DNA of 64,000 nt from Escherichia coli (GTDB taxonomy: Bacteria; Pseudomonadota; Gammaproteobacteria; Enterobacterales; Enterobacteriaceae). Made by a program: the position numbers and the translations under genes. The first letter of the stretch is position 1. Every line of letters starts with the position of its first letter. The stretch lies in assembly GCF_003334335.1 (NCBI RefSeq), contig NZ_QOWQ01000013.1; one strand, written 5' to 3'. The notes below the pieces were generated by a model. It made no database searches. It saw nothing but the letters and a program-made list of their open reading frames with translations, and was not told the origin of the DNA. Shown here piece after piece: positions 23,400-39,251 of this stretch.

Positions 23400-24422
23400 T
23401 CAGAAAGTAATTACACCCTTAATCAACTCACGATTGTTAATCACATCGCGCTCGTAGGTTTCTGCCAGCGTGGCGAACGGATAGCGATGGGTTAACATCA
23501 TGTCAGCAGTGATTTTTCCTTCCGCCATCAGTCGACCGACTTTAGCAAAATCTTCCGGCGTGGCGTTGCGGCTGCCCATCATCGTCGTTTCTTTTTTATG
23601 GAATTCCGGATCGGAGAACTGCAACTCACCTTTAAACAGGCCGACAAATACCACCGTGCCGCCGTGACGAATCAGATTTACGGTGTTATTCATCGCATGT
23701 TGATTACCTGTCGCGTCGATCACTTTCTGCGCCAGCGAACCACCAAACTGCGCCCGCAGCTGCGCGTCAAAATCTTCGGCTGACGGGTCCAGCACGGGCA
23801 ACTCCAGACGCGTTGCCACATGTTCTCGGCGTGCCGGACTGGTATCCGCCACCACCACCTGTGCGCCATCAGCTTTAGCGATTGCCGCCGCGCCCAGACC
23901 GATTGGCCCCGCCCCGACCACCAGCACCTGCTCGCCGGGAGCAATGGCTGCACGACGCACCGCATGTGCGCTAATAGCGAAAGGTTCAATCAATGCTGCC
24001 GCCTGCGGGTCAATACCGTCTGCGGGCAAAATGTTCGCCACCGGCACGCTCAAATACTCACTAAAACCACCATCCTGATGCACACCAATAACTGAAATTT
24101 TTTCACAGCAATTGGTACGCCCGCTTTTACACGCCGGACATTGCTGACAGGCAACATAAGGGATCACAGCAACTTGCTGACCATTTTTAAGATCAGCAAT
24201 ATTTTTACCCAGCCCAACAATCTCCCCACATATTTCATGGCCTAAAACCCGTGGATAACTAAAAAATGGTTGATTTCCACCCCAGGCATGAATATCGGTA
24301 CCGCAAATCCCGACAGACTTAATTTTTATTAATGCTTCATTGTCACCCGGAATAGGTATCTCGCGTTGTTTCCAGACTAATTCTTTCGGCTGCTGGCAAA
24401 TTAAAACATTCATTGTAGACAT
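23400..24422 (-). CDS. lgoD: L-galactonate 5-dehydrogenase (Zn-dependent MDR family)
   Basis: 340 aa from MSTMNVLICQQPKEL; GHEICGEI zinc-binding motif and VVGAGPIGL Rossmann motif. Confidence 0.9.
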   Translation of the reverse strand: MSTMNVLICQQPKELVWKQREIPIPGDNEALIKIKSVGICGTDIHAWGGNQPFFSYPRVLGHEICGEIVGLGKNIADLKNGQQVAVIPYVACQQCPACKSGRTNCCEKISVIGVHQDGGFSEYLSVPVANILPADGIDPQAAALIEPFAISAHAVRRAAIAPGEQVLVVGAGPIGLGAAAIAKADGAQVVVADTSPARREHVATRLELPVLDPSAEDFDAQLRAQFGGSLAQKVIDATGNQHAMNNTVNLIRHGGTVVFVGLFKGELQFSDPEFHKKETTMMGSRNATPEDFAKVGRLMAEGKITADMMLTHRYPFATLAETYERDVINNRELIKGVITF

Positions 24423-24560
24423 GATTCGGCTCTCCATTTTTTGTTGCCTTAGATATCAATGAAAATGAAAAATGGCAGCGGAACGGAAAATCTGTTTTGT
24501 GAAAACACACGCATAAAAATGTTTTAAATCGGGTTTTAATGGACTCACAAGGAGGAAAAT

Positions 24561-25475
24561 ATGAGTCGCTCACAAAATTTACGCCACAATGTGATTAACC
24601 AGGTCATTGATGATATGGCGCGGGGTCATATCCCTTCCCCACTTCCATCGCAAAGTGCGCTGGCGGAAATGTACAACATCAGCCGCACTACAGTGCGTCA
24701 TATTCTCAGCCACTTACGCGAATGCGGCGTCTTAACGCAGGTTGGAAACGACTATGTTATTGCGCGTAAACCTGACCATGATGACGGTTTCGCCTGTACT
24801 ACCGCTTCAATGAGTGAACAAAACAAAGTGTTTGAGCAGGCTTTTTTCACGATGATAAACCAGCGTCAGTTACGCCCTGGGGAAACTTTTTCTGAACTGC
24901 AACTGGCGCGGGCCGCGGGTGTCAGCCCGGTGGTTGTAAGAGAATATCTTTTAAAATTCGGCCGTTATAATCTTATTCAAAGCGAAAAGCGCGGCCAGTG
25001 GAGCATGAAGCAATTCGATCAATCCTACGCCGAGCAGCTGTTTGAGCTACGCGAAATGCTCGAAACACATTCACTTCAGCACTTTCTCAACCTGCCTGAT
25101 CATGATCCCCGCTGGCTGCAGGCGAAAACCATGCTCGAACGTCATCGGCTACTGCGTGACAACATCGGCAATAGCTTTCGCATGTTCTCGCAACTTGACA
25201 GAGATTTTCACTCCTTACTGCTTTCAGCTGCCGACAATATCTTTTTTGATCAATCGCTTGAGATCATCTCAGTCATCTTTCATTTTCACTATCAATGGGA
25301 CGAAAGCGATCTTAAACAGCGCAATATCATTGCCGTCGATGAGCATATGACCATTCTCAGCGCTCTGATTTGCCGCAGTGACCTTGATGCCACCCTTGCG
25401 CTCCGTAACCATTTGAATTCAGCTAAACAATCAATGATTCGATCCATTAATGAGAACACGCGTTATGCTCATTAA
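24561..25475 (+). CDS. lgoR: GntR/FadR-like transcriptional regulator of L-galactonate catabolism
   Basis: 304 aa; divergent from lgoD, upstream of lgoT; N-terminal HTH (ALAEMYNISRTTVRHIL). Confidence 0.85.
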   Translation: MSRSQNLRHNVINQVIDDMARGHIPSPLPSQSALAEMYNISRTTVRHILSHLRECGVLTQVGNDYVIARKPDHDDGFACTTASMSEQNKVFEQAFFTMINQRQLRPGETFSELQLARAAGVSPVVVREYLLKFGRYNLIQSEKRGQWSMKQFDQSYAEQLFELREMLETHSLQHFLNLPDHDPRWLQAKTMLERHRLLRDNIGNSFRMFSQLDRDFHSLLLSAADNIFFDQSLEIISVIFHFHYQWDESDLKQRNIIAVDEHMTILSALICRSDLDATLALRNHLNSAKQSMIRSINENTRYAH

Positions 25476-25689
25476 GTACGGATTAAAAACAGCAAACTAT
25501 TAGCGGGTGCACGGTTTTATCAAAAGATAAATACCGGGAAATTCCCGCTTACCTATGCTCACAATCAGTCGACTAAAAATGTTTTTGTGAGCGGTAGTAA
25601 AGTCCTAAAACTTTAACCTGCCGTTAATGTCAACCTTGCGTAATGCACAATTACGTAAACAATTAAAATTATAAATACAGGAGTCCGGC

Positions 25690-27051
25690 GTGGAAAAAGA
25701 AAATATCACCCTCGATCCGCGTTCTTCATTTACTCCATCTTCGTCGGCAGATATTCCCGTGCCACCAGATGGATTAGTTCAACGCAGTACCCGAATTAAA
25801 CGCATTCAAACCACCGCCATGTTGTTATTATTTTTTGCGGCGGTAATCAATTATCTCGACCGCAGTTCGCTGTCGGTAGCAAATTTAACGATTCGTGAAG
25901 AATTGGGATTAAGTGCCACCGAAATCGGCGCTTTGCTCTCCGTGTTTTCACTCGCTTACGGGATTGCGCAACTTCCTTGCGGCCCACTATTGGATCGTAA
26001 AGGCCCGCGCCTGATGCTGGGACTCGGGATGTTCTTCTGGTCACTGTTCCAGGCAATGTCTGGCATGGTGCACAGCTTTACGCAGTTCGTGTTGGTGCGT
26101 ATCGGTATGGGGATTGGTGAAGCGCCGATGAACCCATGCGGTGTAAAAGTCATTAACGACTGGTTCAACATCAAAGAGCGCGGACGCCCGATGGGCTTCT
26201 TCAACGCAGCTTCTACCATTGGCGTTGCCGTAAGCCCACCGATTCTGGCGGCGATGATGCTGGTGATGGGCTGGCGTGGGATGTTTATTACCATTGGTGT
26301 GCTGGGGATTTTTCTCGCCATTGGCTGGTATATGCTCTATCGCAACCGCGAGCACGTAGAACTGACTGCCGTTGAACAAGCTTACCTCAATGCTGGTAGC
26401 GTGAATGCCCGCCGAGATCCGCTCAGTTTTGCCGAATGGCGCAGCCTGTTCCGTAACCGCACAATGTGGGGAATGATGCTCGGATTCAGTGGCATCAACT
26501 ACACTGCGTGGCTGTATCTGGCCTGGCTTCCTGGTTACCTGCAAACAGCCTATAACCTGGATTTAAAAAGCACAGGGTTGATGGCGGCTATCCCTTTCCT
26601 GTTTGGGGCTGCCGGGATGCTGGTCAACGGTTACGTTACTGACTGGCTGGTCAAAGGGGGAATGGCTCCGATTAAAAGCCGTAAGATCTGCATTATTGCC
26701 GGGATGTTCTGTTCTGCCGCCTTTACGCTGGTCGTACCGCAAGCGACAACATCCATGACGGCGGTTCTGCTGATTGGCATGGCACTGTTCTGTATTCACT
26801 TTGCCGGAACATCCTGCTGGGGCTTGATCCACGTCGCAGTTGCTTCTCGCATGACTGCGTCGGTGGGCAGTATCCAGAACTTTGCCAGCTTCATCTGCGC
26901 CTCTTTCGCGCCGATCATTACTGGTTTTATTGTTGATACCACCCATTCATTCCGTCTGGCACTAATCATCTGCGGTTGCGTCACTGCGGCGGGTGCACTG
27001 GCGTACATCTTCCTGGTTCGTCAGCCGATCAACGACCCACGGAAAGATTAA
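25690..27051 (+). CDS. lgoT: MFS L-galactonate:H+ symporter
   Basis: 453 aa, 12-TM MFS with anion:cation symporter signature. Confidence 0.85.
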   Translation: MEKENITLDPRSSFTPSSSADIPVPPDGLVQRSTRIKRIQTTAMLLLFFAAVINYLDRSSLSVANLTIREELGLSATEIGALLSVFSLAYGIAQLPCGPLLDRKGPRLMLGLGMFFWSLFQAMSGMVHSFTQFVLVRIGMGIGEAPMNPCGVKVINDWFNIKERGRPMGFFNAASTIGVAVSPPILAAMMLVMGWRGMFITIGVLGIFLAIGWYMLYRNREHVELTAVEQAYLNAGSVNARRDPLSFAEWRSLFRNRTMWGMMLGFSGINYTAWLYLAWLPGYLQTAYNLDLKSTGLMAAIPFLFGAAGMLVNGYVTDWLVKGGMAPIKSRKICIIAGMFCSAAFTLVVPQATTSMTAVLLIGMALFCIHFAGTSCWGLIHVAVASRMTASVGSIQNFASFICASFAPIITGFIVDTTHSFRLALIICGCVTAAGALAYIFLVRQPINDPRKD

Positions 27052-27099: not shown

Positions 27100-28764
27100 T
27101 TAAAACGTTTCCCAGTTCTCCCCGCTATCTGCCACGGCCATTTTACGCGGCGCAGCTGGCGTCACGGTTTTTACCACAGCCGATGTTTCACGCTGCTGTT
27201 GCTGCTGTTGCTGAATCCGGAACACTGCCACAGCTTCGGTCAGGCGACTGGCCTGCTCTTCCAGCGCGGCGGCGGCAGCGGCAGATTCTTCCACCAGCGC
27301 AGCGTTCTGTTGGGTTACTCTGTCCATCTCAGCGACCGCTAAGCCAACCTGATCGATACCACGGCTCTGCTCATCAGAAGCCGAAGCAATTTCGCCCATA
27401 ATGTCCGTCACGCGGGTCACGGCACTGACAATCTCCGCCATTGTTTCCCCTGCGCTTTCGACCAGCGTAGAGCCAACATCTACTTTCCCCACCGAGTCTT
27501 CAATCAGGCTTTTAATTTCACGAGCCGCCTGAGCGCTGCGCTGGGCCAGATTACGCACTTCACCCGCGACCACCGCAAAACCGCGCCCTTGCTCACCCGC
27601 GCGCGCTGCTTCAACCGCCGCGTTCAAAGCGAGAATATTGGTCTGGAAGGCAATGCCGTCAATTACGCTGATAATATCGGCGATTTTCTGCGAACTGGTG
27701 GAGATATCGCGCATGGTCTGCACCACGTTATCCACCACTTTGCCGCCGCGTTGCGCCGTTTCAGAAGCACTTAACGCCAGGTGGCTGGCCTGGCGCGCAT
27801 TTTCGGCGTTCTGCTTCACCGTTGCGGTCAGTTGCTCCATGCTGGCTGCCGTCTCTTCCAGCGAAGCGGCCTGTTGCTCGGTGCGCGAAGAGAGATCGTT
27901 ATTGCCGGTAGCGATTTCGCTGGCACCGCTATAGATGGCATTGGCCCCGTTGCGCACATCACCGACGGTACGCATCAGCTCTCCCTGCATATGGCGCAAA
28001 CTCTCAGCCAGTTGCCCCATCTCATTAGAGCCATCCACCTCAATCGGTTTCACCAGATCGCCGCCTGCAATATGACGAATGCTGTCAATCAGGCGATTCA
28101 TTGGCGCTACCAACGAGGCTTTAATACCGAACCAGACGGCGAAGATGACCGCCAGTACGACGATCATCACGCCCACCAGAATCCACATCGCCTGGCTGTA
28201 GGAGGCATTATTATCGCTGACGGCGATATCATAGAGCCGATCGTTTTGCTCCATGTAAGCCACATACTGCTTCTCGAAACCGTCCTGATATCCCTGGGTC
28301 GGCTGATCAAAGAACTCGTTGATTTTGCCTGCACCTAACAGTTGGATCAGCTCCGCCAGCGCATTGTGATAAATATCGTAATTACGTTTGATCTCTGCCG
28401 CTGCGGCGGTGCTCTGACGCGGGTCACGCGGCAACGCTTCGTAATCCGCCCAGTTTTTTTCCGCCTGTTTCAGCGAAATACTGGCACTCTGCATCAGCTC
28501 AGCAACGGTTGAACCGCTACCAATATTATTCTGATCCATCATGTAGCGGATACCCGCGCGGTTGAGGGTGTTACGCGTCTGCAACAACGCGACCCAGCTG
28601 CCATTCAGCGTGGATTGCTGCTGGCGAATGGTTTGTAAAACAGTGAAATTTTCTTTGTCATTCTTTAAGGCATTAAAGAACAGACCGCCTGATGTCAGTT
28701 GTAAAAGGCCAAAAACGGCCAAAACCAGCAGTAAGCTGGTCACGATCTTGATACGTTTTAACAT
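27100..28764 (-). CDS. tsr: Methyl-accepting chemotaxis protein I (serine chemoreceptor)
   Basis: 554 aa from [22 protein letters not shown]; HAMP and MCP signalling domain; C-terminal NWETF pentapeptide; run of 7 Gln in the C-terminal linker. Confidence 0.95.
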
Positions 28765-28795
28765 GGTTTCTCTTTCCACTAGACAGATACACTGG

Positions 28796-28822
28796 TTGTC
28801 GGCCTGGTGGTGGAAAACTTTA
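28796..28822 (-). promoter_or_regulatory. Sigma-28 (FliA) class III promoter of tsr
   Basis: Minus strand reads TAAAGTTT-N11-GCCGACAA, matching the FliA consensus TAAAGTTT-N11-GCCGATAA, about 35-60 bp upstream of the tsr start. Confidence 0.7.
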
Positions 28823-28903
28823 TGCTGTGGAAAAGCGTCGGCACTGCTTTTGTTGCAGCAAACTTGCGTTTTTTGTGAGGGTCACACTCTATAGCGGCAG
28901 TTT

Positions 28904-29809
28904 ATGGTACAAAGTATCAATCTTCTTCGAACCAGTGATACTCCTATGGCTTATAGCATCGATATCATCTCCTGCATTACCGAACGGTTTATGGCGTTAA
29001 CAGCCACTGAAAAGCGTATCGCACAATTTATTCTTGATGACGTCTCTGCCGCAGTAGAGTTGCCAATTGCTGAGCTGGCACGGTTAACGCAAACCAGTCA
29101 GGCGTCGGTGACGCGTTTTGCCCGTGCACTGGGGTGCAAAGATGTCCGCGAGTTGAAAGTCAAACTGGCGCAGTCACTGGCTGTCGGGCAGCGGTTTATT
29201 CTCGATGTACCGGATCTTGACGGTGTTCAGGGGATCTACGAAGCGATTATTAGCGTGCTGGAGACGCATCGTCGTTCGCTGGATATGAATGCCATCAGCC
29301 AGGCTGTAAGCTGGTTAAGTCAGGCGCGGCAAATTCTTGCGTTAGGAACTGGCGGCGGTTCCACTATCTGTTCACAGGAGATTCAGTACCGTTTATTCCG
29401 TCTGGGGCTACCGGTGGTCAGTCAGAATGATGCCCTGATGATGAGAATGATGTGCTCGGCAGTCATGCCGCAGGATGTGGTGATTGTGCTTTCGCTGGGC
29501 GGTTATACACCGGAAATCATCGAAAGTGCGGCAATCGCCCGTCAGTATGGCGCGCGTGTTATTGCCATTACGCCAGCACAAACACCGCTGGCGGAACAGG
29601 TGGATCTGGTATTGCCGTTACTGGTTCAGGAAAGTGATTACATCTTTAAGCCCACCCCTTCCCGCTACGCGATGTTAGCCATGGTCGATGTACTGGCAAC
29701 AGAACTGGCAATGGCAAATAAAGCGCAGGCGAAAGATCGCCTGCGGCGGATAAAACTCGTGTTAGACAGCCACCGTGGGGGCGCTAACCGCCAGCCACTT
29801 GGCGATTAG
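28904..29809 (+). CDS. RpiR/MurR-family transcriptional regulator (HTH_6 + SIS domain)
   Basis: 301-aa ORF; N-terminal HTH (TEKRIAQFILDD...LARLTQTSQASVTRFARALG) and C-terminal SIS sugar-phosphate-binding-like domain; alternative start at Met15 (28946). Not part of the K-12 tsr-btsT interval as I recall it. Confidence 0.75.
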   Translation: MVQSINLLRTSDTPMAYSIDIISCITERFMALTATEKRIAQFILDDVSAAVELPIAELARLTQTSQASVTRFARALGCKDVRELKVKLAQSLAVGQRFILDVPDLDGVQGIYEAIISVLETHRRSLDMNAISQAVSWLSQARQILALGTGGGSTICSQEIQYRLFRLGLPVVSQNDALMMRMMCSAVMPQDVVIVLSLGGYTPEIIESAAIARQYGARVIAITPAQTPLAEQVDLVLPLLVQESDYIFKPTPSRYAMLAMVDVLATELAMANKAQAKDRLRRIKLVLDSHRGGANRQPLGD

Positions 29810-29818
29810 CATTGTCGG

Positions 29819-31288
29819 TTATGCTTCTTCAGGTTTGGTGATCACGACACTCTGGTTTTCACGCTCATTGGTGATAATAGCCAAAGCTTCTTCCCGGCTG
29901 ACCTGACTTGCTGGCGTTACCAACGTCACCAGTACGCCAGCGACCAGGCTGCCCAGCACTGACGGAATACACGGGTTACCCCAGTAAGCCAGCCAGTCGG
30001 CATTCATCAGCACCACAATTGACATCACCATACCGCTCACTAACGCCGCCAGCGCGCCCTGCCAGTTAAAGCGTAGCCAGAAGCGACCGAGAATCGAGCA
30101 GATAAACAGCCCGGACATCAGCATCGAAATCATTTTGGTAATGTAGCTGATGATGTCATTAGAGGTCAGAGCAAAGACCAGCGCCAGGCCAATAACAAAG
30201 GTCAACATCCAGCGTGAGTAAGTAATGGCCTTGTCCTCCGGCGGCATTCTGCCGGTAATCATGGTGTAGACGTCGCGCATCATAATCGCCACCGCCGCGA
30301 TGGCATCGGAGCTGGCAGAAGACATGGTGGCTGAAAGCCCGGCAATCAGCACCACCAGCCCAAGAATGGCAGGTAAGAAACTGGTCGCGAACAAGAAGGC
30401 GTAGTTGCTGTTTTCCAGATTTGGGTTCATGGTGAACGCCGCCATGCCGATAATGGCAGGCAAAATCGAGAAGAACAGATATAACACCCCAGTAATAACA
30501 AACGAACGGCGTACAGAGGGAACATCTTTACCCGAGTAAATACGCTGGCGATAAGACGGTGTGGCCAGTACGCCGACACCAATAACCAGCGCCAGCGAAA
30601 GCGCAGGTAGAACGCCCATTTTATCAATCGCAAACAGGCTCATCGCTTTTGGGTCCATCGCCTGTTCAATCGCACTCCAGCCGCCAACGTGAACAACGGC
30701 GAGAATAGCCATCAATATAAAGCCAAAGAACAGAATTAAGGCCTGAATGGTGTCTGTCCACACTACCGCCGAATAACCGCCGATAATAACGTAAATCGCA
30801 AAAGCTAAGGCGATAATTAATTTTGCTACAGTAAGATCAATACCTGTTGCCCAGGCAAGATACATACTGCCACCTAATATATGCGCCCCCAGCCAGCCAA
30901 TAGAGGCAATAAATATCATCAGGCCGACAATATTTTTAATTAAATGACTCCCGCCAGTATAATAAGATATTTCTTCACTCATGGTCATAAAACGTAATTT
31001 ACGTACCGGTGCAAACAGCCACGCCACCAGTAATATACCTACGGCCCCACCGACGCCATAAAGCATTCCGGCCCAGCCATTGCTGTAGCCAAAGCCCACG
31101 GCGCCCATACTGGAACCCGTGCCAACCATCGTGGCAACGGTTGAGCCCAGCGTCAGAAACAGCGGCAACGAACGCCCGCCCAGCAGAAAATCTTCTCCGC
31201 TTTTCTGATTACGAGACACAAACCAACCAAGCCAAATCATGGCGATGGCATAAATAATAAAGCCGACTAAAAAGATATGACTGTTCAT
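29819..31288 (-). CDS. Sodium:solute symporter (SSF family) transporter
   Basis: 489 aa, about 13 TM segments; N-terminal region typical of PutP/PanF-type SSF carriers. Confidence 0.75.
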   Translation of the reverse strand: MNSHIFLVGFIIYAIAMIWLGWFVSRNQKSGEDFLLGGRSLPLFLTLGSTVATMVGTGSSMGAVGFGYSNGWAGMLYGVGGAVGILLVAWLFAPVRKLRFMTMSEEISYYTGGSHLIKNIVGLMIFIASIGWLGAHILGGSMYLAWATGIDLTVAKLIIALAFAIYVIIGGYSAVVWTDTIQALILFFGFILMAILAVVHVGGWSAIEQAMDPKAMSLFAIDKMGVLPALSLALVIGVGVLATPSYRQRIYSGKDVPSVRRSFVITGVLYLFFSILPAIIGMAAFTMNPNLENSNYAFLFATSFLPAILGLVVLIAGLSATMSSASSDAIAAVAIMMRDVYTMITGRMPPEDKAITYSRWMLTFVIGLALVFALTSNDIISYITKMISMLMSGLFICSILGRFWLRFNWQGALAALVSGMVMSIVVLMNADWLAYWGNPCIPSVLGSLVAGVLVTLVTPASQVSREEALAIITNERENQSVVITKPEEA

Positions 31289-31390
31289 AATTCACATCCT
31301 GCCAGTAGAGAGAGAATAAAGTAAGAGTTCCCGGAGTGCTGAATGTATTCAGCACTCAATTGCGGTCTATTTTTTTAATTCTTAAATTTA

Positions 31391-31786
31391 TTAGCGGGTC
31401 GCGTTATAACAGGTCACATCGACTTCAACTTTACAATCGACAACCAGATCAGCTACACAACAAATACGTGCAGGCGGATTCTCGCCAAAAAATTCTCTGA
31501 ATACTTTATTAAATGACTGGAAATAGCGGGCGTCGGTCAGGATCACTTTCACGTGAACCACATCCGCCAGGCTATAACCGGCTTCAGTCATGATGTCGAC
31601 ACAGTTTTGGATCGCCAGTCGTGACTGTTCAACGATACCGCCTTCTACCACTTCACCGTTTTTCATGGGGGTTTGCCCGGAGACGTACAGCCAGCCGCCC
31701 GCCTCAACCGCCCTGGCAAACGGCAAATGCTGCCCGCCAGTGCCTGTTCCACCTTCCGTACCGTAACGTTTAATACTCATATTCAC
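31391..31786 (-). CDS. RidA/YjgF-family reactive enamine/imine deaminase
   Basis: 131 aa with the conserved RidA C-terminal signature (PARICCVADL...VEVDV). Confidence 0.75.
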   Translation of the reverse strand: MNMSIKRYGTEGGTGTGGQHLPFARAVEAGGWLYVSGQTPMKNGEVVEGGIVEQSRLAIQNCVDIMTEAGYSLADVVHVKVILTDARYFQSFNKVFREFFGENPPARICCVADLVVDCKVEVDVTCYNATR

Positions 31787-31789
31787 TCC

Positions 31790-33241
31790 TTAATGTGAGG
31801 TCTGGCGGCGCAGGAAGCGTCCCGCACGGCCTGTAATGTGTTTATCGCGACCATAGCTCATAACGCCGTTCACCATCACCGCCTCAATGCCATCTGCCGG
31901 GCGTTTGGGATCAGAAAAGCTGGCAACATCACGAATGGTTTGTGGATCGAACAACACCAGGTCCGCAAAATAGCCGACTTTCACCAGCCCACGCTGAGGC
32001 AGACGAAAACGGCTGGCAGAAAGCCCGGTCATTTTGTGGATAGCCGTGGTCAGTGGGAATAAGCCTTCATCACGGCAATAGTGACCCAGCACGCGAGGGA
32101 AAGCGCCCCATAAACGCGGATGCGGCATGGGATCATTGGGCAGTCCGTCAGAGCCAATCATACTGACCGGATAACTCAACACTCTGCGGACGTCGCGCTC
32201 GTCCATGTTGTAATAGATAGCCCCGGCAGGCATCAGCAACTTCGCGGCCTCCAGCATACTCATCTGCCAGTCGATGGCGATTTGTGCCAGTGTTTTCCCG
32301 GCCTGCTGCGGATGTGTTTGTGACCAGGTGATCACAATATCGAATTCGTCGGTGACTTGTTTGAGATCCAGCGTTGAAGAACTGGCCGAGTAAGGGTAGA
32401 CATCGCAGCCAATTTCCTGGTGTTGACGCATTTGGTCAAAAAAGGCCAACGTTTCTTTTGTCCGCCCCCAGTTTTTCGCCCCGGCGCATTTATGGTGGGA
32501 AACCACGACAGGCACTTTGCCATGACGCCCAATACGAAACGCCTCATCCAGGGCATCGAGAATCGGTTCAAATTCAGAACGCAGATGGGTGGTATAAACG
32601 CCCTTCTCACCGGCTAATTCTTCCGCCAGCGCCATGACTTCTTCGGTAGTCGCCTGAAATGCCGTTGCATAGGCCAGCCCGGAACTTAACCCCAGCGCCC
32701 CCTGACTCAACGCCAGACGTAAGTCGGCACGCATAGCGGCAATTTCATCCACCGTCGCCGGGCGAAACAGGTCGTCCATATGGTTATTACGCAGCGCCGT
32801 ATGACCAATCAGCGTGCCAACGTTCAGTGACGGCCTGGCTGCTTCCACTGCCTGGGCATAGCTTTCAACGGTAGGATAAATAAAGTGCTCTGCTTCCCCC
32901 AACAGATTCATCGGGTCAGGAACTTCACCTTTCATTTTCGCCGACGCCGCACTGATCCCGCAGTTACCGACAATCACCGTAGTGATCCCCTGGCTGATCT
33001 TTGGCAGATATTCCGGGATGCGAATAACGTTGATATCGTCATGGGTATGAACGTCGATAAACCCTGGTGCCAGCACCCGCCCTTCCCCGTCAATGACCTG
33101 CTGCGCCGTAACGTTAAGCGCAGGGGCAATATCGACAATCCGATCACCTGTTATTGCCACGTCACCGCGAAATTCAGGGCCGCCGCTACCGTCGATAACG
33201 GTCACATTTTTGATTAACCAGTCAACCTGCATGTTCGTCAC
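31790..33241 (-). CDS. N-acyl-D-amino-acid deacylase-like amidohydrolase (D-aminoacylase family)
   Basis: 483 aa; N-terminus IKNVTVIDGSGGP...APGFIDVHTHDD is the metal-binding HxH start of D-aminoacylase-type amidohydrolases; 4-nt gap to the RidA gene. Confidence 0.75.
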   Translation of the reverse strand: MTNMQVDWLIKNVTVIDGSGGPEFRGDVAITGDRIVDIAPALNVTAQQVIDGEGRVLAPGFIDVHTHDDINVIRIPEYLPKISQGITTVIVGNCGISAASAKMKGEVPDPMNLLGEAEHFIYPTVESYAQAVEAARPSLNVGTLIGHTALRNNHMDDLFRPATVDEIAAMRADLRLALSQGALGLSSGLAYATAFQATTEEVMALAEELAGEKGVYTTHLRSEFEPILDALDEAFRIGRHGKVPVVVSHHKCAGAKNWGRTKETLAFFDQMRQHQEIGCDVYPYSASSSTLDLKQVTDEFDIVITWSQTHPQQAGKTLAQIAIDWQMSMLEAAKLLMPAGAIYYNMDERDVRRVLSYPVSMIGSDGLPNDPMPHPRLWGAFPRVLGHYCRDEGLFPLTTAIHKMTGLSASRFRLPQRGLVKVGYFADLVLFDPQTIRDVASFSDPKRPADGIEAVMVNGVMSYGRDKHITGRAGRFLRRQTSH

Positions 33242-33432
33242 TCCATTTCTGCAATGGTGACAAGTTAACCATTTACAAGGACGAAAAACAGTGGAAAACT
33301 ACGCAAAACCCAGATGATTTTATGATACTTTTATTCATAAATAATAAGATAAATAAACTAAATATTTATATTTCATTTAGTTACAAATGATACTCACATC
33401 CGATACGGTGAAAAACTTAAAAGGTAAATGTT

Positions 33433-34653
33433 ATGAAATACCACTCAGAACCTCTGGTTCCCCATAAATCTGCCCTGATGCAAATGCCCGCAAATCTCCT
33501 TGCCGAAGATGTCTGTTTACCTGCCGCGATCATTAAAAAGCAGGCCCTGGAGAACAACATTACGTGGATGCAACGCTACGCTGACGCGCGCGGCGTTTCA
33601 CTGGCACCGCACGGTAAAACCACCATGACGCCGTGGATTTTTCAGGCGCAGCAGGCGGCTGGTGCCTGGGCAATAGGTGTCGGTAGCGCATGGCAGGCTG
33701 GTGCGGCAATGGCGAGCGGTATTCAGCGAGTGCTGATGGTTAACCAGCTGGTCGGCAAGGCGAATATGCAGTTGATTGCCCAGTTGCAACAACATTACCC
33801 GACGGTCGATTTTATCTGCTGTATCGACAGCATTGAGAACGCCCGCGCTTTGTCTGCCTTTTTTGCCAGTCAGCAACAGACACTGAACGTGATGATTGAA
33901 CTGGGTGTTCCCGGCGGGCGCTGTGGTTGCCGCTCAACGGATGCCGCACTGGCACTGGCTAAACAGGCAGCCCAATTACCGGGGTTACGCCTGCGGGGGC
34001 TTGAGTTATATGAAGGCGTTTTACACGGTGACGATCCACAACCGCAGGTAGAAGCTCTGCTGCGGGATGCCGCACAACTGGCCTGTGATATGGCAAATCT
34101 GGTTGATGGCGAGTTTATTCTCACCGGAGCAGGCACGGTCTGGTATGACGTGGTGTGCAATATCTGGCTGGCGGCAGAAAAGCCTGATAACTGCCGCATT
34201 GTTATTCGCCCTGGCTGCTACATCACTCACGACACCGGGATCTACGACGCGGCACAACAACAGTTGCTTGCCCGTGATCCTGTGGCCTGCGATCTGGCAG
34301 GCGATCTCACATCTGCGCTGGAACTGGTCGCCATGGTGCAATCGGTGCCGGAAGCTGATCGTGCGGTGGTAAATTTTGGTAAGCGTGATTGCGCCTTCGA
34401 CGCCGGACTGCCGCAACCAGTCGCCCACTACCGCAACGGCAAATCACTGGCATTTGATCCACAGGCGATTCGCAGTACAGGTATTATGGATCAGCACTGC
34501 ATGTTGCAACTGTCAGCTAATAGCGACGTGCAAGTGGGGGATATTCTGGTGTTTGGCACATCGCATCCGTGCCTGACCTTCGACAAATGGAAAACGTTGT
34601 TATTGACTGATGACGACTACAACGTACTGGCAGAATTAGACACTCTCTTCTAA
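33433..34653 (+). CDS. Alanine-racemase-fold (type III PLP) D-serine-dehydratase-like enzyme (DSD1 family)
   Basis: 406 aa; probable PLP lysine in APHGKTT near the N-terminus; fold-type III architecture with C-terminal beta domain. Confidence 0.7.
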   Translation: MKYHSEPLVPHKSALMQMPANLLAEDVCLPAAIIKKQALENNITWMQRYADARGVSLAPHGKTTMTPWIFQAQQAAGAWAIGVGSAWQAGAAMASGIQRVLMVNQLVGKANMQLIAQLQQHYPTVDFICCIDSIENARALSAFFASQQQTLNVMIELGVPGGRCGCRSTDAALALAKQAAQLPGLRLRGLELYEGVLHGDDPQPQVEALLRDAAQLACDMANLVDGEFILTGAGTVWYDVVCNIWLAAEKPDNCRIVIRPGCYITHDTGIYDAAQQQLLARDPVACDLAGDLTSALELVAMVQSVPEADRAVVNFGKRDCAFDAGLPQPVAHYRNGKSLAFDPQAIRSTGIMDQHCMLQLSANSDVQVGDILVFGTSHPCLTFDKWKTLLLTDDDYNVLAELDTLF

Positions 34654-34657
34654 GAAC

Positions 34658-34693
34658 GCCCCTTCGGTTAATTATCGAAGGGGCATTTTTATT
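34658..34693 (+). terminator. Rho-independent terminator after the DSD1-like gene
   Basis: gccccttcg-gttaattat-cgaaggggc hairpin followed by atttttatt. Confidence 0.7.
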
Positions 34694-34756
34694 GTGATCT
34701 CAATCACATATCCACCCGACGAATAATTCTTGCCCAACCGCTCACCGCCATTCCTG

Positions 34757-34785
34757 ACCGCTTACATCCCTAAAATAACCACTCA
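34757..34785 (+). promoter_or_regulatory. BtsR (YehT) response-regulator binding site in the btsT promoter
   Basis: Direct repeat ACCGCTTA (34757-34764) and ACCACTCA (34778-34785) separated by 13 bp, matching the ACC(G/A)CT(C/T)A-N13 repeat described for the yjiY/btsT promoter. Confidence 0.65.
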
Positions 34786-34920
34786 GTTATTTACCTTACT
34801 TTACGCGCGCGTAACTCTGGCAACATCACTGCAGGATAGCGGTCAATTTACCTCCTCAAACGCAACGCAAACCTAGAACGGCTTCGGCCAACTATTAATC
34901 AATACATGCCAGGTTTTACT

Positions 34921-37071
34921 ATGGATACTAAAAAGATATTCAAGCACATACCCTGGGTGATTCTCGGAATCATCGGTGCATTCTGCCTCGCGGTAGTTGC
35001 ATTACGTCGGGGGGAGCACGTCAGTGCCCTGTGGATCGTGGTCGCCTCTGTGTCGGTGTATCTGGTGGCTTATCGCTACTACAGTCTGTACATCGCCCAG
35101 AAGGTGATGAAACTCGACCCCACGCGCGCGACGCCTGCGGTTATTAACAACGACGGTCTGAACTACGTTCCGACCAACCGTTACGTGTTGTTTGGTCACC
35201 ACTTCGCCGCTATCGCCGGTGCTGGTCCGCTGGTTGGTCCGGTTCTCGCCGCGCAGATGGGCTACCTGCCTGGCACGCTGTGGCTGCTGGCGGGGGTAGT
35301 GCTGGCCGGTGCAGTACAGGACTTTATGGTACTGTTTATCTCCTCTCGCCGTAACGGCGCATCTCTCGGTGAGATGATCAAAGAAGAGATGGGACCAGTA
35401 CCGGGGACTATCGCGCTGTTTGGCTGTTTCTTAATCATGATCATCATCCTTGCCGTCCTGGCGCTGATTGTGGTTAAAGCCCTGGCCGAAAGTCCGTGGG
35501 GTGTCTTCACCGTTTGCTCAACCGTACCGATTGCGCTGTTTATGGGTATCTACATGCGCTTTATTCGTCCGGGGCGTGTGGGTGAAGTCTCTGTCATTGG
35601 TATCGTGCTGCTGGTTGCCTCTATCTACTTCGGTGGCGTGATTGCTCACGATCCGTACTGGGGTCCGGCACTGACCTTTAAAGACACCACCATTACCTTC
35701 GCGCTGATTGGCTATGCGTTTGTTTCCGCACTGCTGCCAGTGTGGCTGATCCTCGCACCGCGCGACTATCTGGCAACCTTCCTGAAAATCGGCGTTATCG
35801 TCGGCCTGGCGCTGGGTATCGTGGTGTTGAACCCGGAACTGAAAATGCCTGCGATGACCCAGTACATTGACGGTACTGGCCCGCTGTGGAAAGGCGCTCT
35901 GTTCCCGTTCCTGTTCATCACCATCGCCTGTGGTGCGGTATCTGGCTTCCACGCGCTGATCTCTTCCGGCACGACACCGAAACTGCTGGCTAACGAAACC
36001 GACGCGCGTTTCATTGGCTACGGCGCAATGCTGATGGAGTCCTTCGTGGCGATTATGGCGCTGGTTGCTGCGTCCATCATCGAACCGGGTCTTTACTTCG
36101 CGATGAATACCCCGCCTGCTGGCCTTGGCATCACCATGCCTAACCTGCATGAAATGGGTGGCGAGAACGCGCCGATCATCATGGCGCAGCTGAAAGACGT
36201 TACCGCACACGCGGCAGCGACCGTCAGCTCCTGGGGCTTCGTGATTTCGCCAGAGCAGATCCTGCAAACAGCGAAAGATATTGGTGAGCCTTCTGTCCTG
36301 AACCGTGCAGGTGGTGCGCCGACGCTGGCGGTAGGTATCGCTCACGTGTTCCACAAAGTGCTGCCGATGGCTGACATGGGCTTCTGGTATCACTTCGGTA
36401 TTCTGTTCGAAGCCCTGTTCATCCTGACCGCGCTGGATGCGGGTACCCGTTCTGGCCGCTTTATGCTGCAAGACCTGCTGGGTAACTTCATCCCGTTCCT
36501 GAAAAAAACCGACTCTCTGGTTGCCGGTATCATCGGTACTGCGGGCTGTGTGGGTCTGTGGGGCTACCTGCTGTATCAGGGCGTGGTCGATCCGCTGGGC
36601 GGCGTTAAGAGCCTGTGGCCGCTGTTCGGTATCTCCAACCAGATGCTGGCAGCCGTAGCGCTGGTACTGGGCACCGTTGTGCTGATTAAGATGAAGCGCA
36701 CCCAATACATCTGGGTAACTGTTGTTCCGGCTGTATGGCTGCTTATCTGCACCACCTGGGCGCTGGGCCTGAAACTGTTCAGCACCAACCCGCAGATGGA
36801 AGGCTTCTTCTACATGGCAAGCCAGTACAAAGAGAAGATTGCTAACGGTACTGACCTGACGGCACAGCAGATTGCCAACATGAACCACATCGTTGTGAAC
36901 AACTACACCAACGCGGGCCTGAGTATTCTGTTCCTGATTGTGGTGTACAGCATCATCTTCTACGGTTTCAAAACCTGGCTGAAGGTGCGTAACAGCGACA
37001 AACGTACTGACAAAGAAACTCCGTACGTTCCAATCCCGGAAGGCGGCGTGAAGATCTCTTCGCACCACTAA
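34921..37071 (+). CDS. btsT: Pyruvate/H+ symporter, CstA family
   Basis: 716 aa from MDTKKIFKHIPWVILGIIGAFCLAVVAL; polytopic CstA-family transporter. Confidence 0.9.
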   Translation: MDTKKIFKHIPWVILGIIGAFCLAVVALRRGEHVSALWIVVASVSVYLVAYRYYSLYIAQKVMKLDPTRATPAVINNDGLNYVPTNRYVLFGHHFAAIAGAGPLVGPVLAAQMGYLPGTLWLLAGVVLAGAVQDFMVLFISSRRNGASLGEMIKEEMGPVPGTIALFGCFLIMIIILAVLALIVVKALAESPWGVFTVCSTVPIALFMGIYMRFIRPGRVGEVSVIGIVLLVASIYFGGVIAHDPYWGPALTFKDTTITFALIGYAFVSALLPVWLILAPRDYLATFLKIGVIVGLALGIVVLNPELKMPAMTQYIDGTGPLWKGALFPFLFITIACGAVSGFHALISSGTTPKLLANETDARFIGYGAMLMESFVAIMALVAASIIEPGLYFAMNTPPAGLGITMPNLHEMGGENAPIIMAQLKDVTAHAAATVSSWGFVISPEQILQTAKDIGEPSVLNRAGGAPTLAVGIAHVFHKVLPMADMGFWYHFGILFEALFILTALDAGTRSGRFMLQDLLGNFIPFLKKTDSLVAGIIGTAGCVGLWGYLLYQGVVDPLGGVKSLWPLFGISNQMLAAVALVLGTVVLIKMKRTQYIWVTVVPAVWLLICTTWALGLKLFSTNPQMEGFFYMASQYKEKIANGTDLTAQQIANMNHIVVNNYTNAGLSILFLIVVYSIIFYGFKTWLKVRNSDKRTDKETPYVPIPEGGVKISSHH

Positions 37072-38336: not shown

Positions 38337-39251
38337 TCACTCAAAATAGTCCATATCCAGTTTCGGCACCTTCAACAAACGTGAAGAAACCCCTACTTCG
38401 TTTTCGATCATTAAGTGCACCAGGCGTTCCCCATCAACCAACACCATACCCTCAACGGATTGGGCAAAGTCACGCGCCTGAGAAGTAAATCCAGAAGTGG
38501 TAATAAACACCCCACGTTTCGCTTTTTGCCCAGCCAGTGCGCCGTAAAATGCCTGTAATTCTGGCCTGCCTACAGTATTCTGCCAACGTTTTGCCTGAAC
38601 ATAAACTTTCTCCAGGCCAAGTTTATCAAGCGATATCACACCATCGATGCCACCATCTCCAGTACCGCCAACACGCTGCAAATCATCACGGTGGCCGCCA
38701 TACCCCAGGCGATGCAAAACATCCAGAACAATGACTTCAAAGCGCGAAGGAGAAACCTGCAATAAGTTTTCCAGAGCCTCATCAGCCACCGCATCACGAA
38801 GCTCTTTTAGCGCCTGATCTAACCGATCGTCCGGGCTGCTCTTTGCAAGTTCTTCATGATCGGGAGAGTCGGCTTTCGGATCTAAATCGACGGCATCCGG
38901 CCGTGACTTAAGTTTGACATTCACAAAATCGAAGGCCAGATGGTTCGTCTCCTGCTCCGTCATTGGCTGGGGATGAGACGCAACCCAGTCAAAACCCGCA
39001 GGAGTCAGGCACCATTTGCCACGCGACAAACTTTGCGACAACCCGGCACGTTTTAAACGGTCATGCGCCCAGCCTGCACGATTTTTATAAACAAGTTGTC
39101 CGCTGGTAATGACTTTCGCTCGCTGGCTGTCATCCAGTCCTAATGCATCCGCGGCAGCCTCATGAACATCACGCGCGGCTGCACCTTCCGGTTTTGTCGC
39201 CAGATAACGCAGAACAGGTTCAATAAATTTGTCATAGGTTGGAACCGTCAT
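38337..39251 (-). CDS. mrr: Type IV methylation-dependent restriction endonuclease Mrr
   Basis: 304 aa MTVPTYDKFIEPVLRYLATKPEGAAARDVHEAAADALGL; N-terminal winged helix plus C-terminal PD-(D/E)xK region. Confidence 0.9.
   Translation of the reverse strand: MTVPTYDKFIEPVLRYLATKPEGAAARDVHEAAADALGLDDSQRAKVITSGQLVYKNRAGWAHDRLKRAGLSQSLSRGKWCLTPAGFDWVASHPQPMTEQETNHLAFDFVNVKLKSRPDAVDLDPKADSPDHEELAKSSPDDRLDQALKELRDAVADEALENLLQVSPSRFEVIVLDVLHRLGYGGHRDDLQRVGGTGDGGIDGVISLDKLGLEKVYVQAKRWQNTVGRPELQAFYGALAGQKAKRGVFITTSGFTSQARDFAQSVEGMVLVDGERLVHLMIENEVGVSSRLLKVPKLDMDYFE

Follow-up and report, generated by a model that had tools for sequence, protein, structure and literature searches.

What is the function of the genes that stand between tsr and btsT in a small fraction of Escherichia coli genomes? 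We address this question for a 64,000-nucleotide stretch of E. coli chromosome, taken from contig NZ_QOWQ01000013.1 (RefSeq assembly GCF_003334335.1), referred to below as the window. A first-pass annotation of the window had described four open reading frames (ORFs) at 29819-34653, encoding a sodium:solute symporter, a RidA protein, an amidohydrolase of the D-aminoacylase family and an enzyme of fold type III that uses pyridoxal 5'-phosphate (PLP), and had proposed that together they import, deacylate and deaminate a D-amino-acid-like substrate under the control of an RpiR/SIS regulator. The four ORFs are present as described, and their RefSeq family names agree; the regulator, however, which had been counted into the same interval, lies outside it, at 28946-29809. 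There are five intact genes between tsr and btsT, not four, and the true unit is an accessory islet at 28825-34691, placed between tsr (27100-28764, minus strand) and btsT/yjiY (34921-37071, plus strand). We consider it very probable that this islet is an ong-type module for the catabolism of an N-acetyl-D-hexosaminic acid, that is, of a C1-oxidised N-acetyl amino sugar. What we show here concerns protein families, active-site residues, synteny and non-coding blocks that are conserved; experiments by others, in Pseudoalteromonas, have shown two of the reactions, the need for the importer and the RidA protein, and repression by the regulator, and for E. coli we infer the operator, the RidA step and all reactions.

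The ong cluster of Pseudoalteromonas prydzensis ACAM 620 serves oxidative chitin utilisation (Jiang et al., Nat Commun 2022, PMC9537276). In this pathway, chitin oxidised by a lytic polysaccharide monooxygenase (LPMO) gives rise to 2-acetamido-2-deoxy-D-gluconate (GlcNAc1A), which is imported by the sodium:solute symporter (SSS) family transporter OngIT and deacetylated by OngB; OngC, a fold-III PLP enzyme that also deaminates D-Ser and D-Thr, then converts D-glucosaminate to 2-keto-3-deoxygluconate (KDG) and ammonia, and KdgK, a PfkB-type kinase, phosphorylates KDG. OngIT is needed for growth on GlcNAc1A, and OngR, a MurR/RpiR-family protein, is a repressor. OngB, OngC and KdgK were characterised biochemically, and OngIT, OngD and OngR genetically (PMC9537276). 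The succession of uptake, deacylation, PLP-dependent deamination and RidA action under an RpiR/SIS regulator, as first proposed for the window, is thus the established logic of the ong pathway. Nor is the E. coli cluster new as such: Supplementary Data 3 of the same study gives consecutive locus tags for ongC, ongR, ongB, ongD and ongIT in about fifteen environmental or farm E. coli strains and in E. fergusonii, with a '-' for lpmo, ongOT-1, kdgK and ongA in those E. coli. The cluster has therefore already been catalogued by BLAST as an ong cluster, and both its kind and its membership in E. coli are published. Our literature search found no experiment on any enterobacterial ong member, and no other paper on the E. 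coli cluster.

The substrate class can be narrowed from the amidohydrolase gene, ongB (31790-33232, minus strand), whose 480-amino-acid (aa) product is, by sequence comparison, a subtype-V (Cys/His/His) amidohydrolase of the N-acetyl-hexosaminate deacetylase type. It matches Pfam Amidohydro_3 (E = 7e-41), and a phmmer search against the PDB returned 9G5M, the Klebsiella pneumoniae enzyme KleDacyl (938 bits, 84% identity), 9KB1, P. prydzensis OngB (PpOngB; 560 bits, 54% identity in a gapless alignment), and 1M7J, the Alcaligenes D-aminoacylase (458 bits, 47% identity). A dihydroorotase, which the first-pass annotation had named as an identity that would speak against its pathway, was rejected: models of that family align with nothing beyond the first ~65 residues and the ~50 at the C-terminus, scoring 54 bits or less. 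According to the structural report on PpOngB (PDB 9KB1/9KB3; Wang et al., JBC 2025, PMC12017989), the metal ligands are C97, H222 and H252 and the catalytic base is D368, the acetamido and carboxylate groups are anchored by L116, Y194, K254, Y285, S291, L370 and R379, and the C3-C6 hydroxyls are bound in a polar pocket of A193, E226, A256, S290, S292, Q298 and G348. The metal, base and anchor residues are common to D-aminoacylases, whereas the true D-aminoacylases carry F, M, G, T, L or R, and M at the positions of the polar pocket. In the same report, PpOngB and two homologues (one of them PfOngB, 57% identical) hydrolyse GlcNAc1A, PpOngB with a kcat/Km of 1.6 per mM per s, and no N-acetyl-D-amino acid, while true D-aminoacylases do the reverse.

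Against this yardstick, E. coli OngB is identical to PpOngB at 17 of the 18 tabulated catalytic and substrate-binding residues, comprising the C97/H222/H252 metal site, the Asp368 base, all seven acetamido and carboxylate anchors and six of the seven pocket residues (A193, E226, A256, S290, S292 and Q298); the exception is Gly348, which is replaced by Asn (Asn342 in the numbering of the E. coli and KleDacyl proteins). None of these 17 positions varies among the 80 related loci compared, these being the best 80 loci from other genomes, all at least 61% identical to E. coli OngB, with Pseudoalteromonas not among them; a further search found roughly 4700 homologues. The hydrophobic pocket of the D-aminoacylases (F191, M254, L298, M346 and a Thr at PpOngB Ser292) has become A, A, Q, N and S, and because of these replacements E. 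coli OngB lacks the defining feature of a classical D-aminoacylase. Judged by its residues, it has the features of the OngB family with one unexplained substitution, G348N. The earlier hint at an amino-sugar acid in place of a simple D-amino acid is borne out by this polar, OngB-type pocket, and the substrate, said at first not to be evident from sequence, is thereby confined to the N-acetyl-D-hexosaminic acids.

The closest characterised protein, KleDacyl (PDB 9G5M/9GV8; PMC12149444), was published in 2025 as a D-acylase for D-amino-acid production. In the presence of 1 mM Co2+ it hydrolyses N-acetyl-D-Met with a Km of 32 mM, a kcat of 90 per min and a kcat/Km of 2.8 per min per mM (~47 per M per s), and it also accepts N-acetyl-D-Phe, -Trp and -aminobutyrate; its Km values are given as 19-32 mM and its kcat/Km as 1.5-2.8 per min per mM, and sugar acids were neither offered to the enzyme nor considered as substrates (PMC12149444). 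Such kinetics on N-acetyl-D-amino acids are typical of a side reaction. The side-chain pocket in the KleDacyl crystal is polar and water-filled, and holds a glycerol, a polyol, in contact with Glu220, Lys248 and Asn342, the equivalents of E226, K254 and G348 of PpOngB. The gene context of KleDacyl was read from the metagenomic contig of a 92%-identical homologue (L085, 42-7248), which we take to be Klebsiella-type on that identity. The genes there run in the order ongC / ongB-ongD-ongIT ... ongR, with DgoK and DgoA encoded in addition, and the operon of this KleDacyl-type enzyme thus comprises OngC, a RidA protein, an SSS transporter, DgoK, DgoA and an RpiR regulator.

The second enzyme is encoded by ongC (33433-34653, plus strand, 406 aa), a fold-type III PLP dehydratase/deaminase of the DSD1 type with matches to Pfam Ala_racemase_N and D-ser_dehydrat (E = 8e-13 and 4e-16); the D-ser_dehydrat match rules out alanine racemase proper, the other identity that had been named as adverse to the pathway. 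The PLP lysine is K62, in a P-H-G-K motif, and the C-terminal S-H-P-C aligns to S-H-V-D of the D-threonine aldolase 4v15. The His-x-Cys of OngC we take to be the dehydratase-type metal site of the chicken D-serine dehydratase and D-threo-3-hydroxyaspartate dehydratase structures. The best PDB match, 3GWQ (362 bits), was deposited as a 'D-serine deaminase' of Burkholderia xenovorans; at 94% identity it matches the OngC homologue encoded in an ong-type locus of Paraburkholderia (L032, 7653-8831), and its deposited name is probably not its physiological function. We also note that 3GWQ is 79-80% identical to the OngC homologues of other Burkholderia and Paraburkholderia loci (L054, L058, L061, L069, L070, L074 and L077), in which these stand beside homologues of OngR, OngB and OngD.

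Of the remaining genes, ongD (31391-31780, minus strand, 129 aa) encodes a RidA-family protein of a diverged subfamily, which scores 82 bits against TIGR00004, under the cut-off of 106, and which, aligned to PH0854 and other RidA/YjgF structures, keeps the catalytic arginine (Arg105 of RidA) in a P-A-R motif. The importer is encoded by ongIT (29819-31288, minus strand, 489 aa), a sodium:solute symporter family protein with 168 bits to TIGR00813 (sss), and the regulator by ongR (28946-29809, plus strand, 287 aa), a MurR/RpiR-family protein with HTH_6 and SIS domains, both of which Pfam finds in its orthologues; its best NCBIfam match is HexR, at 199 bits and under the cut-off of 296. The RefSeq names of the five proteins are generic because none of these scores above the curated cut-off of an NCBIfam model.

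The same five genes in the same order were found in loci of 13 other Enterobacterales species, at 78-84% identity for OngB, 73-82% for OngC, 84-96% for OngD, 73-85% for OngIT and 78-86% for OngR. Vibrio, whose ong clusters served as stand-ins for the P. prydzensis proteins in comparisons of OngC, OngD, OngIT and OngR, has all five in this order as well (OngB 61-62%, OngC 44-46%, OngD 84-86%, OngIT 68-69% and OngR 51-55%), with kdgK and eda following the transporter gene. The association of the five genes is far beyond chance. Support for a sugar-acid substrate of the OngB family comes independently from Pseudomonas, where OngB stands beside a GntP permease. In P. vancouverensis (L014, 7667-11458) and about 50 other Pseudomonas loci (within L014-L081), a permease of the gluconate family GntP and an OngR-like regulator form a compact three-gene unit with an OngB that is 63% identical to that of E. 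coli and carries Gly348. Most of these Pseudomonas loci have no OngC, OngD or SSS transporter within 10 kb, P. entomophila (L044) being an exception, and the deaminase must be encoded elsewhere or be of another type.

Several points weigh against the assignment of the islet to the ong pathway, or at least to its GlcNAc1A form. KleDacyl hydrolyses N-acetyl-D-Met, -Phe and -Trp (PMC12149444), which PpOngB (PMC12017989) does not; and E. coli OngB, like KleDacyl, has Asn rather than Gly at PpOngB position 348. For the enterobacterial members, the assignment to GlcNAc1A was made by sequence comparison. Beyond OngB, orthology to the proteins that have been tested leans on the Vibrio proxies and on the BLAST table of the Nat Commun authors, and the E. 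coli OngC is only 44-46% identical to the OngC of the Vibrio clusters. OngD is essential to P. prydzensis in vivo, although its reaction is yet to be demonstrated, there or in any other system (PMC9537276). The operons of Citrobacter, Klebsiella, Leclercia, Rahnella, Cedecea and Buttiauxella encode DgoK and DgoA and never KdgK and Eda, for which a chemistry leading from GlcNAc1A to KDG offers no explanation. Lastly, the islet is without a kinase or aldolase and the whole cluster has been lost in most E. coli, so that selection on it may be relaxed.

With these points in mind, we propose the following scheme for the ong-type module in E. coli. OngIT would import the acid sugar by cation symport. 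OngB, as a mononuclear Cys/His/His metallo-amidohydrolase, would remove the acetyl group, giving acetate and the free 2-amino-2-deoxy-aldonate, which is chemically a D-alpha-amino acid. OngC would then form a PLP aldimine with this aldonate, abstract the alpha-proton and eliminate the C3 hydroxyl by way of its His/Cys metal site, releasing an enamine/imine, and OngD might hydrolyse the imine to the 2-keto-3-deoxy-hexonate and ammonia. Chromosomal enzymes outside the islet would finish the degradation to pyruvate and glyceraldehyde-3-phosphate, either KdgK and Eda in the case of KDG or DgoK and DgoA in the case of 2-keto-3-deoxygalactonate (KDGal). OngR would repress ongB-ongD-ongIT, ongC and probably its own gene, likely through a TGGTAC-N3-GTAYCA palindrome and related half-sites. 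A search with Vibrio KdgK by tblastn found no kdgK in the E. coli locus, in which only 9 bp separate the stop codons of ongIT and ongR, and no OngA hexosaminidase, OngOT TonB receptor or AA10 LPMO was found in the islet or its flanks. E. coli has no LPMO, hexosaminidase or TonB receptor for the pathway; the module would act as a scavenger of the free monomer.

By analogy, GlcNAc1A, the only proven substrate of the family, is the default substrate of the islet. KDG induces kdgK and eda via KdgR, and for this reason the pathway would be self-sufficient if its product is KDG. We give the C4 epimer, N-acetyl-D-galactosaminate (GalNAc1A), somewhat less than an even chance of being the main or an additional substrate, a weight that it receives because the E. 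coli genes descend from an enterobacterial operon ending in DgoK and DgoA. Eleven loci from at least nine genera have genes for a DGOK-family kinase and a DgoA-type aldolase between ongIT and ongR, with start and stop codons that overlap those of their neighbours. The pair is present in most Enterobacterales loci, among them those of Leclercia, Cedecea, Enterobacter sp. R1, three Rahnella, Buttiauxella, strain RIT691, Citrobacter freundii and the Klebsiella-type homologue. The kinase matches Pfam PF05035 (E = 4e-90), scores 312 bits against the K. pneumoniae 2-oxo-3-deoxygalactonate kinase 3R1X, and is 51-55% identical to E. coli DgoK. The aldolase scores 302 bits against NF006600 (cut-off 207), keeps the Schiff-base Lys126 and the Val154 positions, and is 66-71% identical to E. 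coli DgoA, the 2-keto-3-deoxy-6-phosphogalactonate (KDPGal) aldolase (289 bits to 2V81), compared with 27-36% to Eda. No KdgK or Eda was found in the dgoK/dgoA-bearing Enterobacterales loci. In Klebsiella and Serratia an additional 'kdgA' had been remarked on in the Nat Commun study, where it was taken for a KDG-6-P aldolase gene (PMC9537276); by its sequence this is a galacto-specific enzyme, and the linkage of enterobacterial ong operons to DgoK and DgoA appears to be new.

Because a C2-C3 elimination leaves C4 untouched, a pathway that ends in DgoK and DgoA implies a galacto-configured substrate, N-acetyl-D-galactosaminate. One may therefore consider a variant in which the enterobacterial branch, the islet included, acts on GalNAc1A and takes it through D-galactosaminate and KDGal to pyruvate and glyceraldehyde-3-phosphate by means of DgoK and DgoA, with E. 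coli having lost its own dgoK-dgoA pair and depending on the core dgo genes; we entertain this variant as a serious but tentative alternative. In its favour, kinase and aldolase genes are built into the eleven operons, where KdgK and Eda are absent. C. freundii has the seven-gene version at the exact E. coli site, in the order yjiA-yjiX-btsT / ongC ongB ongD ongIT dgoK dgoA ongR / tsr-lgoT and at 81-95% protein identity (OngD 95%, OngR 91% and OngIT 90%), the cluster also lies beside tsr in Leclercia and E. pulveris, and the tree of OngB has E. coli nested within a set of taxa that bear dgoKA. OngB position 348, moreover, is Asn in all Enterobacterales and Burkholderiaceae loci and Gly or Cys in all KdgK-linked loci (P. 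prydzensis, two Vibrio, Andreprevotia and P. entomophila), such that Asn tracks with DgoK/DgoA and Gly or Cys with KdgK; in KleDacyl the Asn342 touches the bound polyol beside Glu220, the equivalent of the C4-OH ligand of PpOngB. The substrates that the text consulted names for PpOngB (PMC12017989) do not include GalNAc1A.

Other observations speak against the variant. Glu226, the C4-OH ligand, and the other hydroxyl-binding residues are unchanged, and we found neither a natural source of GalNAc1A nor literature on it. The covariation of Asn with DgoK/DgoA comes from two or three lineages whose deep relationships are not settled. The adjacency of dgoK and dgoA in Paraburkholderia, at first taken as independent support for a galacto substrate, was downgraded, as these genes may belong to a neighbouring galactose operon that has its own IclR regulator, sugar dehydrogenase and ABC (ATP-binding cassette) transporter. 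In P. lycopersici (L058, 12504-18706) the ong-type genes are followed by genes for an IclR/KdgR-like regulator, DgoK, DgoA, an enzyme resembling SDR (short-chain dehydrogenase/reductase) glucose-1-dehydrogenases, an unassigned 343-aa ORF and an AraG-type ABC ATPase, and no homologue of the galactonate dehydratase DgoD was found in the 21-kb locus, nor in any other locus examined. This arrangement might represent a complete oxidative route from hexosamine to KDPGal with OngB and OngC in place of DgoD, or just an adjacent galactose operon. Within E. coli, none of 5426 complete genomes covers at least 80% of the C. freundii dgoK-dgoA segment; 5023 genomes do match this segment, and those listed do so through core dgoKA, at 60-80% identity. 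The E. coli junction between ongIT and ongR looks like a clean excision of dgoK-dgoA. The core dgo operon responds to D-galactonate and is not known to respond to KDGal, and a KDGal-producing islet would then be poorly served by it in E. coli; if the product is KDGal, the reliance of E. coli on that operon would make the islet a weakened version, in keeping with its rarity. Taken at its fullest, the proposal is that the enterobacterial ong branch is an undescribed pathway for N-acetyl-D-galactosaminic acid via KDGal and dedicated DgoK/DgoA paralogues, with Asn342 of OngB as the specificity switch, which we regard as possible without expecting it.

A second alternative is that the islet is a decaying relic: an ancestral cluster at the tsr-btsT site from which E. 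coli lost dgoK-dgoA first and is now losing the whole, the five genes remaining without a useful growth phenotype. In K-12-type genomes the match to the window ends at 28824 and restarts at ~34692, with ~95 bp of unrelated sequence instead, and the islet is a 5.87-kb insertion/deletion (presence/absence) polymorphism relative to K-12. It is present in 195 of the 5426 complete E. coli genomes (3.6%), with alleles 95-99.9% identical across these genomes, a divergence similar to that of the flanking tsr; strains ECCNB12-2, LR-03 and E308 are among those that carry it. Its edges show no insertion sequence, integrase, tRNA or flanking repeat, and the GC contents of islet and window are 0.515 and 0.507; horizontal transfer by means of a mobile element was rejected on the native GC, the absence of mobility features at the edges and the site shared with Citrobacter. 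Native composition and the common site in C. freundii speak for a long residence in the Escherichia/Citrobacter lineage followed by loss from most E. coli, and against a recent import. This history, the retention of the islet by so few E. coli, all of them without linked dgoKA, and the 9 bp left at the ongIT/ongR stop junction would all suit a relic. On the other hand, the five ORFs are intact, with no pseudogene flags in the genomes inspected, and the regulatory palindrome and terminators described below are intact as well. The conservation of the islet across the 195 genomes, which resembles that of tsr, suggests purifying selection over the divergence of E. coli as a whole, and E. pulveris and Shimwellia also have a kinase-less, five-gene version. 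We consider decay improbable.

Weakest, and in our view very improbable, is the reading that takes the amidohydrolase for a D-aminoacylase (EC 3.5.1.81). D-Ser, D-Thr or some other D-amino acid would then be set free and deaminated by the DSD1-type enzyme, with RidA quenching 2-aminoacrylate or 2-iminobutanoate. Although the activities of the 84%-identical KleDacyl, the deamination of D-Ser and D-Thr by P. prydzensis OngC and the origin of RidA's classical substrates in Ser/Thr dehydratases would accord with it, the hydrophobic pocket of the true D-aminoacylases is replaced in E. coli OngB, KleDacyl acts on these substrates at a side-activity level and has a polar, water-filled pocket that binds glycerol, the genes that accompany ongB in the operons of relatives encode sugar-acid enzymes (KdgK/Eda or DgoK/DgoA) or, in Pseudomonas, a gluconate-family permease, and the regulator is of the SIS-domain sugar type.

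We return to the ong-type module and to its control. The structural genes form two divergent units, ongB-ongD-ongIT on the minus strand and ongC on the plus strand, which share a 200-bp region at 33233-33432, while ongR is convergent with ongIT. A promoter downstream of the regulator gene, proposed by the first-pass annotation as the site for a reporter fusion, was misplaced: given the convergent arrangement there is no such promoter, and those of the structural genes must lie in 33233-33432. The start of ongR is placed at 28946 and not at 28904 on the basis of the PGAP annotation and of a conserved palindrome, through which the longer ORF would run. This palindrome, TGGTAC-AAA-GTATCA at 28905-28919 (plus strand), is a candidate OngR operator of the form TGGTAC-N3-GTAYCA: 14 of 14 Enterobacterales loci have the sequence TGGTACAAAGTA(C/T)C, without variation, 25-40 bp upstream of the ATG of ongR, in surroundings that are unalignable. 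Within the window it is the sole match at up to one mismatch; matches to the 15-mer with up to three mismatches were not significant there, and the motif AAAGTATCA matched twice against 0.43 expected, a weak excess reached by 7 of 100 shuffles. As these motif statistics are weak, the case for the operator rests on the invariance across species.

The divergent ongB/ongC control region holds three blocks that are invariant or nearly so across the 14 Enterobacterales loci, AAGTTAACCATTTACAAG at 33262-33279, AAAAACAGTGGAAAA at 33284-33298 and TGATACTTTTATTCA at 33323-33337, for all of which a regulatory function may be presumed; the last has a TGATAC/GTATCA half-site in common with the palindrome upstream of ongR. 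A scan for sigma-70 promoters returned 7 where 7.1 were expected from shuffles, and no promoter was assigned. The ongB-ongD-ongIT transcript may end at a terminator-like stem-loop at 29724-29745 (minus strand), antisense inside the 3' end of ongR and 75 nt past the ongIT stop, with a 9-bp stem (7 GC) and a T-rich tail; it is a consensus match only, and its sequence is also kept in C. freundii. For ongC a strong intrinsic terminator is predicted at 34658-34684 (plus strand), within the islet and 5 nt after the stop codon, with an 11-bp stem (7 GC) and a 5-nt loop followed by ATTTTTATT. The 102-nt spacer between ongD and ongIT contains a perfect 10-bp hairpin, GAGUGCUGAA-UACA-UUCAGCACUC, at 31334-31357 (minus strand), ~45 nt upstream of the ongIT start; the spacer has a minimum free energy of -21.1 kcal/mol (z = -2.3), and the hairpin could be an attenuator, a processing site or a stabiliser. 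An Rfam scan of 28600-35000 gave no real match. The mechanically called ORF starts of three genes lie too far upstream, namely those of ongR (28904 against 28946), ongB (33241 against 33232) and tsr (a GTG at 28779 against the annotated 28764).

The surroundings of the islet deserve a few remarks. It is flanked by lgoRDT-tsr on one side and by btsT-yjiX-yjiA on the other, and the lgoD-lgoR-lgoT genes for L-galactonate utilisation, at 23400-27051 to its left, make this a sugar-acid neighbourhood. A 453-residue MFS_1 protein likewise flanks the cluster on the ongR side in C. freundii and in the Klebsiella-type contig, probably as coincidental synteny. The right edge of the islet abuts TTGTGATCTCAATCACATAT (34692-34711), which has the look of a CRP-type site (TGTGA-N6-TCACA) and which is also found, slightly diverged, upstream of btsT in K-12; the islet would thus separate tsr from a control region shared by tsr and btsT. 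On the far side of yjiA, a minus-strand ORF of 304 aa (38337-39251) occupies in the window the position at which strain LR-03 carries mrr and then hsdR. Strain ECCNB12-2, whose annotation is in register with the window only from ~23 to 38.6 kb and was used for that part only, encodes a 3'-5' exonuclease there, together with a truncated hsdR, symE and GmrSD. The variation in this hypervariable region, known as the 'immigration control' region, is independent of the islet.

The basic logic of the pathway is already published and will not surprise a specialist. What the present analysis would add is a specific function, the scavenging of C1-oxidised N-acetyl amino sugars, for five proteins that carry generic RefSeq names in ~4% of E. 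coli and in many Klebsiella, Citrobacter, Enterobacter and Serratia. It also places KleDacyl, the 'D-acylase' whose crystal structure was published recently, and 3GWQ, a 'D-serine deaminase' from structural genomics, in sugar-acid operons. If the linkage to DgoK and DgoA holds true, the ong family would have a second, galacto-configured class of substrate, with a single candidate specificity residue. Gut Enterobacteriaceae would then be able to use oxidised GalNAc, derived for instance from mucin sugars that have been oxidised, with a bearing on nutrient-niche differences among them; the Klebsiella 'D-acylase' would actually be a GalNAc1A deacetylase, and the E. coli islet a truncated version leaning on core dgoKA.

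Lastly, we compare the islet with the systems that it most resembles. It shares OngR, OngB, OngC, OngD and OngIT with the ong cluster of P. prydzensis, and with them a deacetylation followed by deamination to a 2-keto-3-deoxy acid. Unlike that cluster, however, the E. coli islet is without kdgK, the ongA hexosaminidase, a TonB-dependent receptor and an LPMO. The gene orders differ as well: ongR lies inside an ongCRBD operon in P. prydzensis but convergent at the far end in E. coli, and ongIT, which in P. prydzensis belongs with kdgK-ongA to a different, OngR-independent operon (PMC9537276), is part of the ongB-ongD operon in E. coli. The dga pathway of Salmonella for D-glucosaminate likewise converts an amino-aldonate to a 2-keto-3-deoxy acid by PLP-dependent elimination, but it does so on a phosphorylated, non-acetylated substrate taken up by a phosphotransferase system (PTS), with the D-glucosaminate-6-P ammonia-lyase DgaE, which is of fold-type I, and the aldolase DgaF, under sigma-54 control and without a deacetylase or RidA. 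Mentions of 'D-glucosaminate degradation' in the E. coli literature refer to this unrelated dga PTS pathway, and the glucosamine pathway in GapMind is NagX-based; on galactosaminate, on a glucosaminate ammonia-lyase and in the way of RB-TnSeq data, the literature yielded nothing relevant. At the level of single enzymes, the Alcaligenes faecalis D-aminoacylase (1M7J) and the Bordetella N-acyl-D-Glu deacylase (3GIP) share with E. coli OngB the fold, the metal site and the anchoring of carboxylate and acetamido groups, whereas their side-chain pockets are hydrophobic or cationic (F191, M254, L298 or R295, M346 and Thr) where that of E. coli OngB has Ala, Ala, Gln, Asn and Ser. DSD1-type D-serine dehydratases, D-threo-3-hydroxyaspartate dehydratase and 3GWQ have the fold-type III PLP architecture, the PHxK lysine and the H-x-C of OngC, in contrast to the H-x-D of D-threonine aldolases, and OngC would differ from the DSD1 types in its predicted substrate, a C6 amino-aldonate in place of D-serine. 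KleDacyl, in turn, has the same active-site residues as E. coli OngB, Asn342 included.

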